DNA of 64,000 bases from a virus (Duplodnaviria > Heunggongvirae > Uroviricota > Caudoviricetes), in the IMG/VR virus record IMGVR_UViG_3300042339_000806; one strand, written 5' to 3'. This document shows, piece after piece, positions 9,557 to 64,000 of this stretch (positions within the stretch are counted from its first letter, which is position 1; each line of letters opens with the position of its first letter). The notes beneath the pieces were generated by a model, which saw only the letters and a program-made list of their open reading frames with translations, was not told the origin of the DNA and searched no databases. The position numbers were made by a program, and so were the translations under genes.

Positions 9557-9595
9557 TTGCTAGAAAGAATTAAAGATCGTATCTTTAGGTATATA
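9557..9595 (+). promoter_or_regulatory. Bacteroidetes-type promoter (TTG-N20-TAtcTTTAGGTATA) driving the tRNA array
   Basis: TTG at 9557, box TATCTTTA at 9580, exact 20-nt spacer. Same module seen about 17 times in the window. First tRNA starts 43 nt downstream. Confidence 0.55.
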
Positions 9596-9637: not shown

Positions 9638-9721
9638 GGAAGGCGGCCGAATGGACGAGGAGCTTGTCTTGAAAACAAGTAGCGGGTAACACCGTTGTGG
9701 GTTCGATTCCCATGTCTTCCT
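9638..9721 (+). tRNA. tRNA-Ser (anticodon TGA)
   Basis: Acceptor ggaaggc/gtcttcc, D region GGCCGAATGG, anticodon stem cttgt/acaag with loop CTTGAAA, long variable arm, T-arm TTCGATT. Strongly Ser-like overall. Confidence 0.6.
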
Positions 9722-9726
9722 CAATA

Positions 9727-9800
9727 TTGGCTTATAGTGTAACGGTTAGCACAAAACACTTTGACTGTTTTAGTCTAGGTTCGAATCCTAGTAAGCCAAC
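9727..9800 (+). tRNA. tRNA-Gln (anticodon TTG)
   Basis: Acceptor ttggctt/aagccaa perfect. Anticodon stem aaaca/tgttt with loop CTTTGAC. T-arm ctagg-TTCGAAT-cctag. Confidence 0.6.
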
Positions 9801-9808
9801 AATAATTT

Positions 9809-9884
9809 CGGGTAGTAGAGGAGTCTGGTTTATCTCGCTGGCCTTGGACGCTAGAGCACGCAGGTTCGAATCCTGCTTACCCGA
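9809..9884 (+). tRNA. tRNA-Pro (anticodon TGG)
   Basis: C1-G72 start typical of Pro. Anticodon stem ctggc/gctag with loop CTTGGAC. T-arm gcagg-TTCGAAT-cctgc. Discriminator A. Confidence 0.55.
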
Positions 9885-9890
9885 CGAATT

Positions 9891-9962
9891 GCCCCTATAA
9901 CTTAACGGCTAAAGTACTATACTTTTAATATAGGAATCCAAGTTCGATTCTTGGTGGGGGTA
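9891..9962 (+). tRNA. tRNA-Lys (anticodon TTT)
   Basis: D-stem actt/aagt. Anticodon stem ctata/tatag with loop CTTTTAA. T-arm ccaag-TTCGATT-cttgg. Confidence 0.6.
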
Positions 9963-10063
9963 CAAAAGCTACATACACAACCTTACAATCTCTCAGTTAA
10001 AAGCTGTTGTAAGATCAAGTAATAAGCCAATATGCTTGTTAGTTGTGATCAGGTGTAGCACCA

Positions 10064-10134
10064 GCCTCGTTGGCGTAATGGGAGCGTATTTCTTTTACAT
10101 GGAAATGGCAGTAGTTCGATTCTACTACGAGGTA
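10064..10134 (+). tRNA. tRNA-Val (anticodon TAC)
   Basis: Acceptor gcctcgt/acgaggt, anticodon stem tttct/ggaaa with loop TTTACAT, T-arm agtag-TTCGATT-ctact. Compact 71 nt. Confidence 0.5.
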
Positions 10135-10233
10135 CAAAATTCTGGGTAGCAAGTAAAATACCGGCAAGTATTTTCAAGTCTATATGGAGTCTATTATGAG
10201 TTATTAATTTGCCGATGAAAGCTTGTTATAGTT

Positions 10234-10305
10234 TCGTTCTTGGTAGATTGGTGACTACGCTGCCCGCGGAGGGTGGAGAAGCAGGTTCGATTCCTGTAGA
10301 ATGAT
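10234..10305 (+). tRNA. atypical tRNA (anticodon CGG?, Pro-like, G at position 33)
   Basis: Acceptor tcgttct/agaatga, D-stem gtag/ctac, anticodon stem ctgcc/ggtgg (two G-U) with loop CGCGGAG, T-arm gcagg-TTCGATT-cctgt. The loop lacks the conserved U33. Confidence 0.35.
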
Positions 10306-10311
10306 CAAATT

Positions 10312-10392
10312 GGGATGCTTCAGTCACTGGTGTGATAAGCGGTCTGTAAAATCGTTCTGTAAGAAGGTGTGGTTCGATTCCACAGTGTCCCA
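10312..10392 (+). tRNA. tRNA-Tyr (anticodon GTA), class II
   Basis: Acceptor gggatgc/gtgtccc, anticodon stem gcggt/atcgt with loop CTGTAAA, long variable arm, T-arm tgtgg-TTCGATT-ccaca. Confidence 0.5.
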
Positions 10393-10454
10393 CAAATATG
10401 GAATAACATCGCTCCCGTAATGCCATGGCTTGTATACGAGTGACGGGAGACAAT

Positions 10455-10527
10455 GGACCTTTGGTATAGCTGGTGCGTACGCTAGTCTGAAGAACTAGAG
10501 GAGTAGGTTCGATTCCTACAGGGTCCA
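10455..10527 (+). tRNA. tRNA-Phe (anticodon GAA)
   Basis: Acceptor ggacctt/agggtcc, anticodon stem ctagt/actag with loop CTGAAGA, T-arm gtagg-TTCGATT-cctac. Confidence 0.6.
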
Positions 10528-10604
10528 CGAAGTAGAGAGGTATGGGTTCGAGTCCCATCCGGGCCGTTAGCGGCGCGGTAGTATAACGGTAGTAACGCTT
10601 TCTT

Positions 10605-10676
10605 GGGTTTGTCGTATAACGGCTATTACGGATGACTGTTAATCATCTTATGAAGGTTCGATTCCTTCCAGGCCCG
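10605..10676 (+). tRNA. tRNA-Asn (anticodon GTT)
   Basis: Acceptor gggtttg/caggccc (2 G-U), D-stem cgta/tacg, anticodon stem gatga/tcatc with loop CTGTTAA, T-arm gaagg-TTCGATT-ccttc. Confidence 0.55.
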
Positions 10677-10682
10677 CAAAAT

Positions 10683-10756
10683 AGGTAATTAGCTCAATTG
10701 GTTAGAGCACTCGCCTGATACGTGAGAGGTTATAGGTTCGATTCCTATATTACCTA
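10683..10756 (+). tRNA. tRNA-Ile (anticodon GAT)
   Basis: AGGTAAT-TA-GCTCAATTGGTTAGAGC...CTGATAC closely parallels bacterial tRNA-Ile(GAU). T-arm atagg-TTCGATT-cctat. Confidence 0.6.
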
Positions 10757-10761
10757 CAAAG

Positions 10762-10844
10762 GGAAAGTAAATCAACTAGGAGTTGAGACCGCTTGCTAAG
10801 CGTATCGTGCCTTCGGGCATGGGGTTCGATACCTCTGCTTTCCT
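10762..10844 (+). tRNA. class II tRNA, anticodon ambiguous (possibly GCT, Ser)
   Basis: Acceptor ggaaagt/gctttcc, variable-arm hairpin gtgcc-ttcg-ggcat, T-loop TTCGATA. The anticodon region cgcttgctaagcg folds ambiguously. Confidence 0.4.
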
Positions 10845-11161
10845 CAAAAAAACCTCCTCACCGTCCTCACAACGCATCTAAGGAATGCAGGAGAAGGAAG
10901 TACGAACGGGGCCCCGTGGTAAGACACATTAAAATCAGATAGTACAGCGATAGGGTAAGAGGTTCCCTATCAACTACCGACTTGATCTAGGATCGAGAAT
11001 ATCTCATAAGTATTCTCAGACAAGAGCGTAACTTGTAGTCGGTACTAAATTATATGGGTAGGTAGGAAGTTAAGAAACGTTTCTCAAAAAACGACTTAAT
11101 GAGGTAAAGCGTTAGAGTAGTAAAATTGAGTAAGCGTTATTAAAGTAGTATAATTTTATAT

Positions 11162-11233
11162 GGTGTTCGAAGCTTTTTAGTGAAGCGCAAGACTGTGAAT
11201 CTTGAGAAGACGGGGCGGTACCGTCCTTACACC
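11162..11233 (+). tRNA. tRNA-His-like (anticodon GTG), atypical T-loop and acceptor
   Basis: Anticodon arm caaga-CTGTGAA-tcttg perfect, with anticodon at the expected position 34-36. T-arm gacgg-ggcggta-ccgtc has a non-canonical loop. Acceptor pairing is imperfect. Confidence 0.3.
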
Positions 11234-11239
11234 CAACAT

Positions 11240-11319
11240 GCCTCTGTGGTGAAATAGGTAAACACACCAGGCTTAAAACTTGGCGCTCAGGCTTGCTGGT
11301 TCGACTCCAGTCAGGGGTA
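11240..11319 (+). tRNA. tRNA-Leu (anticodon TAA), class II
   Basis: Acceptor gcctctg/caggggt, anticodon stem ccagg/cttgg with loop CTTAAAA, long variable arm, T-arm gctgg-TTCGACT-ccagt. Confidence 0.55.
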
Positions 11320-11408
11320 CAAAAAAATCGCTGATGTCCTCTTTAATTGTTCGACATTGAAGATGTGTAATGATATAAACATCGTAGGTTAAGCGATATC
11401 CTACAACT

Positions 11409-11480
11409 GGTCTTATAGTTTAATTGGAAAAACTTATCGCTACGAACGATAGAACGTAGGTTCGACTCCTACTAAGACCT
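11409..11480 (+). tRNA. tRNA-Arg (anticodon ACG)
   Basis: Acceptor ggtctta/taagacc perfect, anticodon stem tatcg/cgata with loop CTACGAA, T-arm gtagg-TTCGACT-cctac. Confidence 0.6.
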
Positions 11481-11640
11481 CAAAATATAATTACAAAGCG
11501 TAGGTAAGAAGACGTGGAGAGACGTTGCGCAAGGGTACACACTAAGGATAAGTATTTATACTCAACTCTCTAAGGGTGTGTGAAGCACTAAGAAATTAGA
11601 TCCCAGATTCCTGATAAAACTTACTAATTATATTTTAACC

Positions 11641-11712
11641 GCCCTATTAGTTAAACGGATATAACGAATCTCTTCTAAAGATTAATTCTAGGTTCGATTC
11701 CTGGATGGGGTA
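11641..11712 (+). tRNA. tRNA-Arg (anticodon TCT)
   Basis: D-stem gtta/taac, anticodon stem aatct/agatt perfect with loop CTTCTAA, T-arm ctagg-TTCGATT-cctgg. Confidence 0.6.
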
Positions 11713-11718
11713 CAACAA

Positions 11719-11789
11719 GCGGGTCACAGACAAGGTGTCGGTACGGTCTCCAAAACTGCTACGGGTAGGTTCGATTCCTACGGTCTGCG
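11719..11789 (+). tRNA. tRNA-Trp (anticodon CCA)
   Basis: Anticodon loop CTCCAAA identical to the bacterial tRNA-Trp loop. T-arm gtagg-TTCGATT-cctac. Acceptor gcgggtc/ggtctgc with three G-U. Confidence 0.45.
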
Positions 11790-11847
11790 CAAAATTATTA
11801 ATTATGAAAAAGAAATTCGATGCTCATTAGGTTTATTAACCTAAAAT

Positions 11848-12039
11848 TTGAGCAAGATGAGAATCAAAAACTATACTCAGAAAGAGTATAAAAAAGAAAA
11901 AAGAAAACAATCCAAAGATGGTGGAATGTGGTTTGAAGACTATTGGAGTAAATGTAAATCCGGAATATGGGCCTTCAAGTACAGAGAGTACCGTACTTGG
12001 AAGTACAACAGAAAAACACAGTATAAACCTTTAAATTAA
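11848..12039 (+). CDS. small Lys/Arg/Tyr/Trp-rich basic protein
   Basis: 63-aa ORF immediately upstream of the HNH gene within the tRNA island. Confidence 0.3.
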   Translation: MSKMRIKNYTQKEYKKEKRKQSKDGGMWFEDYWSKCKSGIWAFKYREYRTWKYNRKTQYKPLN

Positions 12040-12044
12040 AAATC

Positions 12045-12551
12045 ATGAGTAAGTATCAAAAAGCACTAGTAGTGGATGCAAGCTTTACAGCAAGATCAGT
12101 TATAAGTACCGAACGAGCGTTCGTGATTTTTTATAAGGGTAATGCTGAAGTAGTAGCAGAGCATCCAGAAACATTTAGTTTAATTAATCCTGAACTAACC
12201 ATTTACAAACCTTCTATTATTAGAGTAGCTAAGTATGTAAAACAAAACATTCAAAAAGTACCTCTAACAAGAGAGAATATTTACCGAAGAGATAATTATG
12301 AATGTGTTTATTGTGGTAGTTCAAATCAAAGAATATTAACACTTGACCATGTTATCCCTCAATCAAAAGGAGGAAAAGATGCTTGGGATAATTTAGTAAC
12401 AGCTTGTAGACCATGTAATCATGAGAAAGCAGATTTAACATTAGAGGAATATGGTAAGGAAATTCCAGAACCAAAAAGACCTCATTATTTAATGTTAATG
12501 AGAAGTATGACATACATACCTAAAGAATGGGAAACATTTTTATTCTTTTAA
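12045..12551 (+). CDS. HNH homing endonuclease
   Basis: CVYCGSSNQRILTLDHVIPQSKGGKDAWDNLVTACRPCNHEK is the canonical HNH ββα-Me/zinc motif. It sits inside the tRNA array. Confidence 0.75.
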   Translation: MSKYQKALVVDASFTARSVISTERAFVIFYKGNAEVVAEHPETFSLINPELTIYKPSIIRVAKYVKQNIQKVPLTRENIYRRDNYECVYCGSSNQRILTLDHVIPQSKGGKDAWDNLVTACRPCNHEKADLTLEEYGKEIPEPKRPHYLMLMRSMTYIPKEWETFLFF

Positions 12552-12820
12552 ATAATGGAAGAGTGGAAGCCAGGATATTATGATAAATGGGAGAATTTTA
12601 TTCCTTATGATAAAAAATGGTATTGTAATGAAAATAAAAGAATCCATCAATCAGAAAAGGAAAAAAATAATTGTAAGTATTGCAATAAAGGTTTGGAAAA
12701 CCAGAAATAGTTTCATATATTAAGGTATAAGAAAGTAAAATATATCACCTACTACAAAACGGCGCGCGAAACAATAGAATCCCGACTTGTACTGTCTGGA
12801 AGGTCAGGCTAGGTGAAAAT

Positions 12821-12891
12821 GGGCAGTTGGCCGATTGGTTAGGCACAGGATTGCAAACTCTGTTAGGTTGGTTCGATTCCAACACTGCCCT
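12821..12891 (+). tRNA. tRNA-Cys (anticodon GCA)
   Basis: Acceptor gggcagt/actgccc perfect, anticodon loop TTGCAAA, T-arm gttgg-TTCGATT-ccaac. Confidence 0.55.
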
Positions 12892-12986
12892 CATTTAAGG
12901 TTCGACCCTCTACCAAATGTGTTACACCCACAAATGGACAACGAGAGGGAGCTACCGATTGATAAGTGGCCGCACATGCGGCAAAT

Positions 12987-13060
12987 GCCCGAGTGGTGGA
13001 ATTGGCAGACACGGCGGCCTTAGAAGTCGTAAACTGAGAGTTCGAGTCTCTCCTTGGGTA
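12987..13060 (+). tRNA. tRNA with anticodon TAG (Leu by anticodon) but class I short variable arm
   Basis: Acceptor gcccgag/cttgggt, anticodon stem gcggc/gtcgt with loop CTTAGAA, T-arm gagag-TTCGAGT-ctctc. It is 74 nt with a 5-nt variable loop, unusual for Leu. Confidence 0.4.
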
Positions 13061-13136
13061 CAAATTAGAGTTAGCTTATAGTAAAGCAGCAGGGGCTAAC
13101 CTGCAGAACGGATACGAAAACCGGCTCTAATTATCT

Positions 13137-13210
13137 GCTTCTGACGCACAAATGGTGGTGCACCGGATTTGTAACCCAGAATAGAGTCGGTTCGATCCCG
13201 TCCAGAAGCT
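13137..13210 (+). tRNA. tRNA, probable Thr (anticodon TGT), weak anticodon stem
   Basis: Acceptor gcttctg/cagaagc perfect and D-stem gcac/gtgc. The loop TTTGTAA sits in a poorly paired stem. Confidence 0.4.
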
Positions 13211-13215
13211 CAACT

Positions 13216-13287
13216 GCGACTATCGTATAATGGTCATTACTTCAGACTTCCAATCTGAAGATGAGAGTTCGATTCTCTCTAGTCGCT
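13216..13287 (+). tRNA. tRNA-Gly (anticodon TCC)
   Basis: Acceptor gcgacta/tagtcgc perfect, anticodon stem tcaga/tctga with loop CTTCCAA, T-arm gagag-TTCGATT-ctctc. Confidence 0.6.
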
Positions 13288-13338
13288 CAGGGGTGTGTAG
13301 GAGCCCAAGAGTATGTGATGAGCATACGCCTACAATTT

Positions 13339-13410
13339 GCTGCCATCGTCTAACGGCTAGGACCTATGGTTTTCATCCATAAAATCGGAGTTCGATTCTC
13401 CGTGGCAGTA
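13339..13410 (+). tRNA. tRNA-Glu (anticodon TTC)
   Basis: Anticodon stem tatgg/ccata perfect with loop TTTTCAT, T-arm cggag-TTCGATT-ctccg. Confidence 0.6.
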
Positions 13411-13415
13411 CAAAA

Positions 13416-13487
13416 GGGGCTATAGTGAAATTGGCATCACGATAGATTTGCATTCTGTTATTCCGGGTTCGAATCCCGGTAGCTCCA
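13416..13487 (+). tRNA. tRNA-Ala (anticodon TGC)
   Basis: Acceptor ggggcta/tagctcc with G3-U70, anticodon loop TTTGCAT, T-arm ccggg-TTCGAAT-cccgg. Confidence 0.6.
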
Positions 13488-13492
13488 CAAAA

Positions 13493-13564
13493 GGTCTATT
13501 CGTTCAACGGCTAGGATACTACCCTGTCACGGTAGGGATGAGAGTTCGATTCTCTCATAGACCG
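13493..13564 (+). tRNA. tRNA-Asp (anticodon GTC)
   Basis: Acceptor ggtctat/atagacc perfect, anticodon stem ctacc/ggtag with loop CTGTCAC, T-arm gagag-TTCGATT-ctctc. Confidence 0.6.
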
Positions 13565-13572
13565 CTTATAAA

Positions 13573-13643
13573 CTGCGTTAAAGTGTAAAGGTTGCATCCC
13601 GGTCTCATAAGCCGGGGGGGTGGTTCGAGTCCACGCTACGCTA
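13573..13643 (+). tRNA. tRNA-Met-like (anticodon CAT), possibly initiator-like; acceptor stem poorly paired
   Basis: GC-rich anticodon stem ccggt/gccgg with loop CTCATAA. T-arm gtgg-TTCGAGT-ccac. The 5' and 3' ends do not form a 7-bp acceptor by eye. Confidence 0.35.
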
Positions 13644-13649
13644 CAAATT

Positions 13650-13723
13650 GTCCTTTTAGCTCAGATGGTGAGAGCAGCTCGCTCATAACGAGAAGGTCAC
13701 AGGTTCGAGCCCTGTATAGGACA
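13650..13723 (+). tRNA. tRNA-Met elongator (anticodon CAT)
   Basis: TA-GCTCAGATGGTGAGAGC D-arm, loop CTCATAA, AGGTCACAGGTTCGAGCCCTGT closely resembles bacterial elongator Met. Confidence 0.55.
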
Positions 13724-13787
13724 CTAAATTTTATCCACTATGAGGTCAATTCCTTCGTCTCCAATGTAGGTTAGCTATTGCTAACTT

Positions 13788-62741: not shown

Positions 62742-62933
62742 ATGGAAGTATGGGGAATAAATAAGTTAAAGGATCCTAATTCAAATCATATAATACGAAA
62801 GGTAGTAAAGAGGAGAGAACAATTAAAGGAAAGAGAACAGACACCTAAGGTAATAAAGGAATTAAAGGGCCTAGAAGACAGGATGAAGATAGGAGAAATG
62901 CTATTGGAAAGATGGCGAGAGACCCATTCATAG
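62742..62933 (+). CDS. hypothetical charged protein
   Basis: ORF only. Confidence 0.3.
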   Translation: MEVWGINKLKDPNSNHIIRKVVKRREQLKEREQTPKVIKELKGLEDRMKIGEMLLERWRETHS

Positions 62934-62985
62934 ACCCATTCCATACCCGTTTCTCTACCCGTTCGATACCCGTTTATACATACGT
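62921..62985. repeat. iteron array, left cluster (GACCCATT/TACCCGTT x5 at 11-12 bp spacing)
   Basis: Octamer starts at 62921, 62933, 62944, 62956 and 62967. Confidence 0.6.
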
Positions 62986-63248
62986 ATCACGTACGGGAGA
63001 TATAAGGAGAGACATAGAGAGAACTACTGAGATACATAGTAAAAGGTGAAGGACTTTGATTAAACATAAAGGGTAGAAAAACCATACAAAGAGTATAAAG
63101 ACATAGAGTACTAGGTAAGAAAAGGTACTGTACAGTATATACGATGTGTAAGAAAGAGGATAAGGCTAGGTAAAATAAGGATAGGAAAAATGTGGCGGGT
63201 GTGTCTCCTTAATAGTTTTTTTCTATAATAAGGAAAACCTATAGTAGA

Positions 63249-63384
63249 TACCCGTTCTATAGCCCCGTTTCACTCTCTAGTAACCCGATTGGTTACCCGT
63301 TACAAACCCGTTCTAGCTACCCGTTTTGTTACCCGTCTAGTGACCCAATTGAGACCCGTTCTCTTTACCTGTTTGGAACCCGTT
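63249..63384. repeat. iteron array, right cluster (about 11 copies of (T/A/G)ACCCGTT at 10-14 bp spacing)
   Basis: Octamer starts at 63249, 63262, 63283, 63295, 63305, 63319, 63330, 63342, 63353, 63366 and 63377. A ccccttcggggg hairpin follows at 63408-63425. Confidence 0.6.
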
Positions 63385-63444
63385 TCTTTCCCCGGTAGAA
63401 ACCAGGTACTTATCCCCTTCGGGGGTAAAAAGCCTATAAAAGAG

Positions 63445-63481
63445 TTGCTTATATGGCCTATGGTTCTTATCTTTAGGTATA
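63445..63481 (+). promoter_or_regulatory. promoter module
   Basis: TTG 63445, TATCTTTAGGTATATA from 63468, 20-nt spacer. Confidence 0.5.
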
Positions 63482-63498
63482 TAAAAACAAATAATCAT

Positions 63499-63708
63499 AT
63501 GGTAAAGGAATTAAATAAGGTAATAGGAAAGGATTGTTCATGTAATAATTCTCCTACACTGAGGGCTAAATTGCTTACGGTAACTTCTCTTTGGTGCTTA
63601 CTTGAAGTAACTCCTACTATGTATAATAGGAACCAATGGAGTAATATCTCAGTGGGTAAGAAATTTAAGCTTCCTATTCAGACGGTTCACAATATGTATT
63701 TTTATTAA
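63499..63708 (+). CDS. hypothetical protein (start trimmed; upstream part of the computed ORF runs through the iterons)
   Basis: MVKELNKVIGKD... begins 17 nt after the promoter box. Confidence 0.35.
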   Translation: MVKELNKVIGKDCSCNNSPTLRAKLLTVTSLWCLLEVTPTMYNRNQWSNISVGKKFKLPIQTVHNMYFY

Positions 63709-64000
63709 ACCTATACCTATGAAACAGATTCAGATTACAATGCAAGAGCGATGGGCAGCCTCACGGCATACCATTCAGAAGTCTAAGAAGACCTACACCA
63801 GGAAGGAGAAGCACTCCTCTTCCAAGCAGGGGCCTCACAAGGGCCCTTTCCTTTTATCTAAAGCTTTCCTTTAAGTAAAATATTCAGTTAAAGCATCACT
63901 TTAAGTTAAAGTAACAGTTTAAGTTAAAGCTTTGCTTTAAGTAACGAACATGGCGTACCGGCCCGTCTACTCTTCCGACTCTCTTTCAAAGCCAGGCCCC

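Follow-up and report, generated by a model that had tools for sequence, protein, structure and literature searches.

What is the function of the non-coding element of about 560 bp that lies close to the right end of the window analyzed here (64,000 nucleotides of a Caudoviricetes genome, IMG/VR record IMGVR_UViG_3300042339_000806), in which two arrays of short direct repeats flank a purine-rich segment? A first-pass annotation, made from the letters of the sequence, had proposed either an iteron-type replication origin or a ParB-like partition site. Sequence comparison suggests that the element is most likely a conserved, single-copy, cis-acting site for the assembly of a multimeric DNA-binding protein. 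An iteron-type replication origin appears to be its best-fitting role, a tentative assignment that we hold at somewhat below even confidence. We infer protein binding, and any part played in replication, from the anatomy of the element, the phasing of its repeats, its conservation, its presence in a single copy and its early-type position, all of which are observed directly.

The 2.5 kb flanking the element match Flavobacterium phage vB_FspM_immuto (MW353175) in patches, at about 89% identity; by this comparison, the window genome is a relative of immuto, a 160-kb myovirus. All immuto genes lie on one strand and are co-oriented, and the annotation of that genome includes a DnaB helicase, a DnaG primase, a family A polymerase and an SSB. 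The phage appears to be virulent, with genes for the maintenance of a plasmid or prophage missing from the immuto annotation. A cluster of 20 tRNA genes occupies positions 9638–13724 (+) of the window, and a run of dense AGCAGC/AAGCAG-type hexamers at 1581–2381, reaching up to 10 per 200 bp, is probably a low-complexity coding repeat. The immuto record contains at 18.6–37 kb (L002 18607–37015) a full annotated set of 7-deazaguanine DNA-modification genes (QueC, QueD, QueE, QueF, FolE and DpdA). Modification of G in virion DNA, if present, could alter the recognition by proteins of a G-containing repeat motif. Further relatives were found by scanning IMG/VR and a metagenome collection with patterns describing the conserved core and the arrays (L008/L006, L009, L019, L099 and L129–L140), and through homologues of a neighboring protein (L263, a 162-kb contig; L267, 39 kb; L269, 35 kb).

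The repeats are built on the heptamer ACCCGTT, which occurs nine times in the 64-kb window against 1.88 expected occurrences; all nine are on the plus strand at 62945–63384, and none of 100 shuffled sequences reached this number. Copies were counted on the plus strand at no more than one mismatch to ACCCGTT, and the copy at 63343 (ACCCAAT, two mismatches) was added, bringing the right array to 11. The left array (62921–62975, +) comprises five copies of a 12-bp unit with the core ACCCGTT or ACCCATT, starting at 62922, 62934, 62945, 62957 and 62968. The right array (63245–63408, +), which has the same orientation, contains 11 clear copies within 63250–63378, starting at 63250, 63263, 63283, 63295, 63306, 63319, 63331, 63343, 63354, 63367 and 63378, and two degenerate ones at approximately 63391 and 63402. 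This recovers the roughly 16 octamers, five to the left and 11 to the right, listed in the first-pass annotation. Start-to-start spacings are 12, 11, 12 and 11 bp on the left, 282 bp across the gap, and 13, 20, 12, 11, 13, 12, 23, 13 and 11 bp on the right, that is, 11–13 bp and about double this wherever a weak copy intervenes, in agreement with the earlier description of helical-turn spacing interrupted by a few wider gaps. Pooling 100 sites from six relatives gave a full repeat unit of 12 nucleotides, roughly cTaGaTACCCGTTt, in which most of the information resides in ACCCGTT, accompanied by a weaker T at −5 and G at −3. The string CTAGTTAC was considered as a feature common to the promoter box and the array unit and was rejected, being present in one array copy only, among diverse spacers.

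The arrays are separated by 275 bp, of which 269 bp (62976–63244) constitute a non-coding, single-copy conserved core that is devoid of ACCCGTT and purine-rich on the top strand. Its purine content of 66.5% falls within the top 1.4% of 269-bp windows, and its G+C content of 34.2% is average; the purine-rich spacer reported previously is real, although longer than the 250 bp assigned to it. The same spacer had been called ORF-free, which is true in substance: the open reading frames touching the element (62742–62933, 62912–63049 and 62786–62944) are conserved in no relative. At its right-hand edge, some 10 bp short of the right array, the core has an AT-rich, easily melted patch CTTAATAGTTTTTTTCTATAATAAGGAAAA (63208–63237), which ranks among the least stable 2.2% of 30-bp windows, is unremarkable at the 60–100 bp scale, and represents a candidate unwinding element. 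A perfect DnaA box (TTWTNCACA) was found in the cores of only 4 of 11 members, with none in the window, and was rejected as a core feature for this lack of conservation. A promoter inside the core was likewise rejected, as reading of the sequence yielded only a poor match to the phage box. A 12-nt inverted repeat within the core is invariant in close members and lost in the divergent L099 and L263. In immuto (L001 8990–9034) and L269 (approximately 2430–2475), a 45-bp insertion containing a hairpin with an 8-bp stem (ACAGAGTA...TACTCTGT) falls precisely where the left array meets the core, altering the distance between the arrays and leaving the core intact.

Beyond the right array, a GC hairpin ccccttcggggg (63414–63425; CCCC-TTCG-GGGG) is followed by an A-run and then by a phage promoter box, TTGC-N19-TATCTTTAGG (63445–63477, +), confirming the hairpin and promoter noted earlier. 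The hairpin is present in all relatives with a varying stem length and is not a canonical terminator on either strand. The promoter box stands ahead of the downstream small genes and is predicted to drive them. Its general form is TTGC-N19-TAnnTTTAGG, of which the window has 10 copies (0.07 expected) and immuto 20; a fuller form is TTGCtagttac-N8-TTCgTATATTTAGG, with a fixed span of 33 nt. We take the box to resemble the −33/−7 promoter type of Bacteroidota. Plus-strand boxes of the window are located at 9557, 15573, 18381, 55740, 56965, 57913, 60113, 61061 and 63445, and 17 of the 20 immuto boxes are concentrated at 60.9–76.2 kb, on both sides of the element. The position of the box after the hairpin is the same in all relatives, with the right array ending about 60 bp upstream. 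The element therefore sits inside, and not at the edge of, a stretch of small genes dense in promoters, which has the look of an early region.

The whole arrangement is conserved. The immuto counterpart, at 66.3–66.95 kb of its record, has an identical layout, and the order left array, core, right array, GC hairpin, promoter box is common to immuto and at least 15 metagenomic relatives; the repeats, whose absence from related phages would have spoken against the first-pass proposal, are present in every relative found. Copy number across 17 distinct members ranges from 4 to 8 in the left array and from 10 to 18 in the right one, and 227 of the 282 intervals between adjacent copies in these members measure 11–13 bp (mean 11.9). 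The core is the best conserved segment, with a mean pairwise identity of 85%, compared with 77–78% for the arrays, 79% for the hairpin and promoter and 57–59% for the flanking ORFs, and its length is 268–269 nt in 12 of 13 complete members. Within the arrays, conservation is higher at motif positions (92%) than in spacers (79%), and members differ by insertions or deletions of whole 12-bp units, both as expected of a multimeric protein-binding array. Genes on both sides have been swapped between members, while the element itself was kept.

The element occurs once per genome. No second copy of the core was found in the window or in immuto by short-word BLAST, nor any other dense non-coding array elsewhere in the genome, and the octamer search that the first-pass annotation had suggested returned scattered singletons only, with seven ACCCGTT copies outside the element in immuto, on both strands. 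A cluster of ATAAAC motifs near the terminase genes was rejected as a second array, since it is ordinary AT-rich intergenic DNA. A search of IMG/VR and bacterial genomes for three copies of ACCCGT produced, besides the true relatives, perfect coding or tandem repeats among the matches listed. No comparable array was found in bacterial genomes, where the three-copy pattern matches inspected, among at least 120 listed, were all perfect tandem repeats.

Could one of the adjacent hypothetical proteins be the initiator, as had been supposed? The flanking genes differ between relatives, and the two small genes downstream offer little encouragement. A single gene accompanies the element in every member; it encodes p51 (63719–63874, +), a basic protein of 51 aa belonging to the wider Pfam family DUF7230, whose AlphaFold model is of low confidence and consists of one helix. 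An invariant block of p51, KSKKTYTRKEKH, can be aligned with the tail by which ArfA binds the ribosome, without statistical significance (PDB 5u4i, E = 0.23), and no arrays stand upstream of the distant homologues of p51. We considered p51 as an RHH-type array binder and rejected this on account of the one-helix, low-confidence model, the DUF7230 membership with an ArfA-like basic tail and the array-less distant homologues. The second protein, p69 (63499–63708, +; 69 aa), carries a conserved DCSCN motif, occurs in one subgroup and is absent from half of the family. It is predicted to fold into a small SH3/KOW-like beta-barrel (pLDDT 80) without a significant PDB match; an HTH protein was rejected given this beta-rich small fold and the partial distribution.

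Further observations concern this downstream region. An intrinsic terminator hairpin (63828–63848) lies inside the p51 ORF, before the stop codon, and termination there would yield a non-stop mRNA. Regulation of bacterial arfA works via non-stop mRNA, and p51 may be a phage-encoded ribosome-rescue-like factor. The slot between the promoter and the p51 gene behaves as a swappable cassette, occupied by p69 in one subgroup and by small membrane proteins in others. Further on, a stretch at approximately 63850–64000 (−), cut by the end of the window and complete in L001 at 9895–10100 (−), is nearly identical between the window and immuto. It is bounded by a leftward phage promoter box (immuto 67523, minus strand) and a bidirectional terminator, has a GC-rich 5′ part and four ACUUAAA(G)-type repeats, and folds with a z-score of −2.8; a search of Rfam gave only a sub-threshold ctRNA match, on the terminator hairpin. 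We regard it as a candidate small RNA of about 200 nt.

In the reading that we favor, many copies of one sequence-specific DNA-binding protein would assemble on the two arrays, each 12-bp unit taking up one protein or one dimer, and would fill some 16–25 units in total that bracket the 269-bp core. If the element is an origin, the arrays would act as iterons, and the complex might open the core or load the DnaB-type helicase there, the opening taking place either at the AT-rich patch beside the right array or via an R-loop formed by a purine-rich read-through transcript. Several observations favor such a role: the heptamers are clustered far beyond chance and strictly co-oriented, the arrays are phased, there is one copy per genome, conservation persists despite swapped neighbors, and a low-stability patch of 30 bp abuts the right array. 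With DnaB, DnaG, SSB and a family A polymerase of its own, the phage requires a site for loading, and phage origins are commonly placed within the early region, as in lambda, SPP1, T7 and lactococcal phages. The iteron-type architecture recognized in the first-pass annotation is real, single-copy and present in every relative found, but it comes with no recognizable initiator, with a DnaA box that is not conserved and with a core whose G+C is average and whose stability over 60–100 bp is ordinary. Pfam and PHROGs searches of the neighbors, the proteins within about 12 kb and two ORFs by DnaB revealed no initiator, helicase loader or DNA-binding domain; an initiator, if there is one, may belong to a novel protein family. 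The skew analysis proposed earlier as a check was uninformative in the complete immuto genome. Whole-sequence purine excess peaks at 66,286, but the GC-skew extreme lies at 74.3 kb and the signal is dominated by gene class, and third-codon-position skews, calculated on genes that are all co-oriented, have their extremes at 80–82 and 151–154 kb and do not mark the element. A stronger version, in which the site would be a new type of phage origin with about 20 iterons of 12 bp, a novel family of binding proteins and an R-loop in the core priming the leading strand, so that iteron and R-loop initiation are combined, appears rather unlikely.

The main architectural rival of an origin is a genome-end junction: the core could be a short direct terminal repeat, collapsed in assemblies and bordered by T7-style arrays, or the arrays could be small-terminase sites around pac, as in P1 or SPP1. 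This explanation, absent from the first-pass annotation, has a nearly identical layout to recommend it, as the T7 junction (NC_001604) consists of five CCTAAAG-type heptamers, a 160-bp terminal repeat, about 13 heptamers at 12–13 bp and early promoters, closely matching the order of five copies, core, 11 copies and promoter found here; a terminus or packaging site would also suit a single-copy, strongly conserved element. However, the large terminase is of the T4 gp17 lineage (Pfam Terminase_6N; PDB 3ezk, E = 2.5e-38), with T4-like cyanophages as its nearest relatives. Terminases of this lineage package DNA by the headful mechanism, producing no unique ends, and the gp17-type enzyme speaks strongly against this rival; on sequence grounds, assignment of the core to the terminal repeats fails on terminase type. 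Early-type promoters, moreover, lie on both sides of the element and not downstream only. Contig ends tell the same story in an analysis that leaves out IMG/VR locus boundaries, which are storage chunks and not contig ends: 9 of 12 whole metagenome contigs span the element, and the four ends found in or near it are at differing positions, with about 2.6 expected by chance; in three long contigs, of 162, 39 and 35 kb, the element is likewise internal. Contig ends being neither enriched nor fixed at the element, physical termini there are unlikely, and we consider a terminus or packaging site improbable as a whole. An alternative that also involves a DNA-binding protein, and that we judge unlikely, is a coat formed on both repeat blocks by a small phage protein of ParR-, omega- or TubR-like type, which would not initiate replication but control the promoter at 63445 and/or organize or tether phage DNA. 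Two co-oriented blocks of short repeats at about one helical turn reproduce the layout of R1 parC and of split tubC (PMC2241845, PMC6009700), and the distance from the end of the right array down to the conserved promoter is always about 60 bp, with the conserved GC hairpin and A-run in between. Against this, the immuto annotation has no NTPase of the ParA, ParM, TubZ or PhuZ type, and the genes after the promoter do not encode centromere-binding proteins, p69 being a variable beta-barrel and p51 a DUF7230 protein with an ArfA-like tail. The ParB-like partition site proposed in the first-pass annotation falls with the same finding, neither a partition NTPase nor a centromere-binding operon being annotated in immuto. 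The promoter is also located outside the arrays and not between them, about 20 sites far exceed the need of one promoter, the other 19 or so promoter boxes lack ACCCGTT, and the length-invariant 269-bp core is left without an explanation.

Two further possibilities dispense with a phage protein bound to phage DNA. In one of them, the region is an untranslated RNA of about 500 nt, in which ACCCGUU repeats sequester an RNA-binding protein or the core acts as a functional non-coding RNA. All motifs do lie on one strand, a stable hairpin with a UUCG loop closes the element, the length of the core is fixed, and in most members only a few bases separate the array from the stop codon before it, with no terminator between. 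In immuto and L263, however, the left array is immediately preceded by a canonical intrinsic terminator that no promoter follows, an indication that the arrays work at the level of DNA rather than RNA, and neither strand has a promoter box ahead of the core. There is no Rfam match on either strand, the fold z-scores are −1.8 on the plus strand and −0.45 on the minus strand, the alignment fold gains a covariation term of −0.6 kcal/mol with compensatory changes in 1 of 38 pairs, and the long inverted repeat of the core disappears in the divergent L099 and L263. An RNA role for the element is unlikely, a structured RNA is not supported, and as a full account this possibility strikes us as quite improbable. 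In the other, the arrays serve as a decoy that, early in infection, titrates a DNA-binding protein of the host, such as a nucleoid protein, a regulator or a defense sensor. One motif concentrated in high copy at one place, in a region that enters or is expressed early, would suit this purpose, as would the fact that no cognate phage protein was identified. Nevertheless, a comparable array was not found in bacterial genomes among the matches listed (at least 120), and a decoy accounts for the arrays without explaining the conserved core; we consider it very improbable.

The element is the most conserved non-coding feature of its region and outlasts the exchange of genes on both sides, in a group of Flavobacterium phages that is abundant and aquatic. 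A full-text search of a collection of papers found no cis-acting replication, packaging or segregation site for these phages. If the element is an origin, replicons and genetic tools could be built around it, both for these phages and for the bacteria they infect; it would also point to an unrecognized protein whose DNA target is a 12-bp unit arrayed in about 20 copies. Isolates of immuto and its host are in culture.

Comparison with known systems does not make the element a demonstrated member of any known family, and the resemblances are partial in each case. R1 parC consists of two sets of five 11-bp repeats (PMC2241845), and split tubC sites are known, one of them in a prophage (PMC6009700). 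Both R1 parC and Type III tubC resemble our element in having short direct repeats, roughly a helical turn apart, grouped in two blocks beside a promoter, and theirs are bound cooperatively (PMC2241845, PMC6009700). The gap, however, is 39 bp as opposed to 275 bp here, the promoter here is outside the blocks, and, unlike in those loci, no centromere-binding protein or motor operon is found downstream. Assignment to the centromeres fails on gene context, the immuto annotation containing neither a partition NTPase nor an operon for centromere binding. The T7 concatemer junction (SRR – terminal repeat – SRL) is similar in having co-oriented heptamers at 12–13 bp, a few ahead of a central segment (160–270 bp across the two systems) and about a dozen after it, followed by early promoters. 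It differs in that copies of the T7 repeat are found within the terminal repeat as well, the core here being free of ACCCGTT, and in that the present phage has a T4 gp17-type and not a T7-type terminase, with promoters on both sides.

T4 oriE, described as containing "evenly spaced 12-nt iterons", was considered as a precedent and rejected as weak. The repeats form an array with a 24-nt period inside gene 5 (L266 7427–7558; T4 approximately 79.4–79.6 kb), at 70–200 bp from the annotated oriE point, and their link to origin activity is not established; they lie in coding sequence, whereas the arrays described here are non-coding and flank a conserved core. A further likeness is offered by iteron origins (lambda ori, P1 oriR with incC/incA, RK2 oriV and R6K gamma), which also have co-oriented direct repeats in helical register, sometimes arranged in two clusters, and a cis site that is single-copy and lies in the early or replication region; to the AT-rich DNA adjoining their repeats, the 30-bp patch of the present element may correspond. 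Classical iterons are 17–22 bp long and fewer, with 3–9 copies in the origins compared, against about 16–25 copies of a 12-bp unit with a 7-bp core here. Unlike those origins, the present element has no adjacent or recognizable gene for a Rep/O-type initiator, its clusters flank a non-coding, length-invariant core of 269 bp and not a rep gene, and the DnaA box is not conserved. As judged from its anatomy, what appears to set this element apart is an iteron-like array of unusually short and numerous units, split around a conserved core of invariant length.
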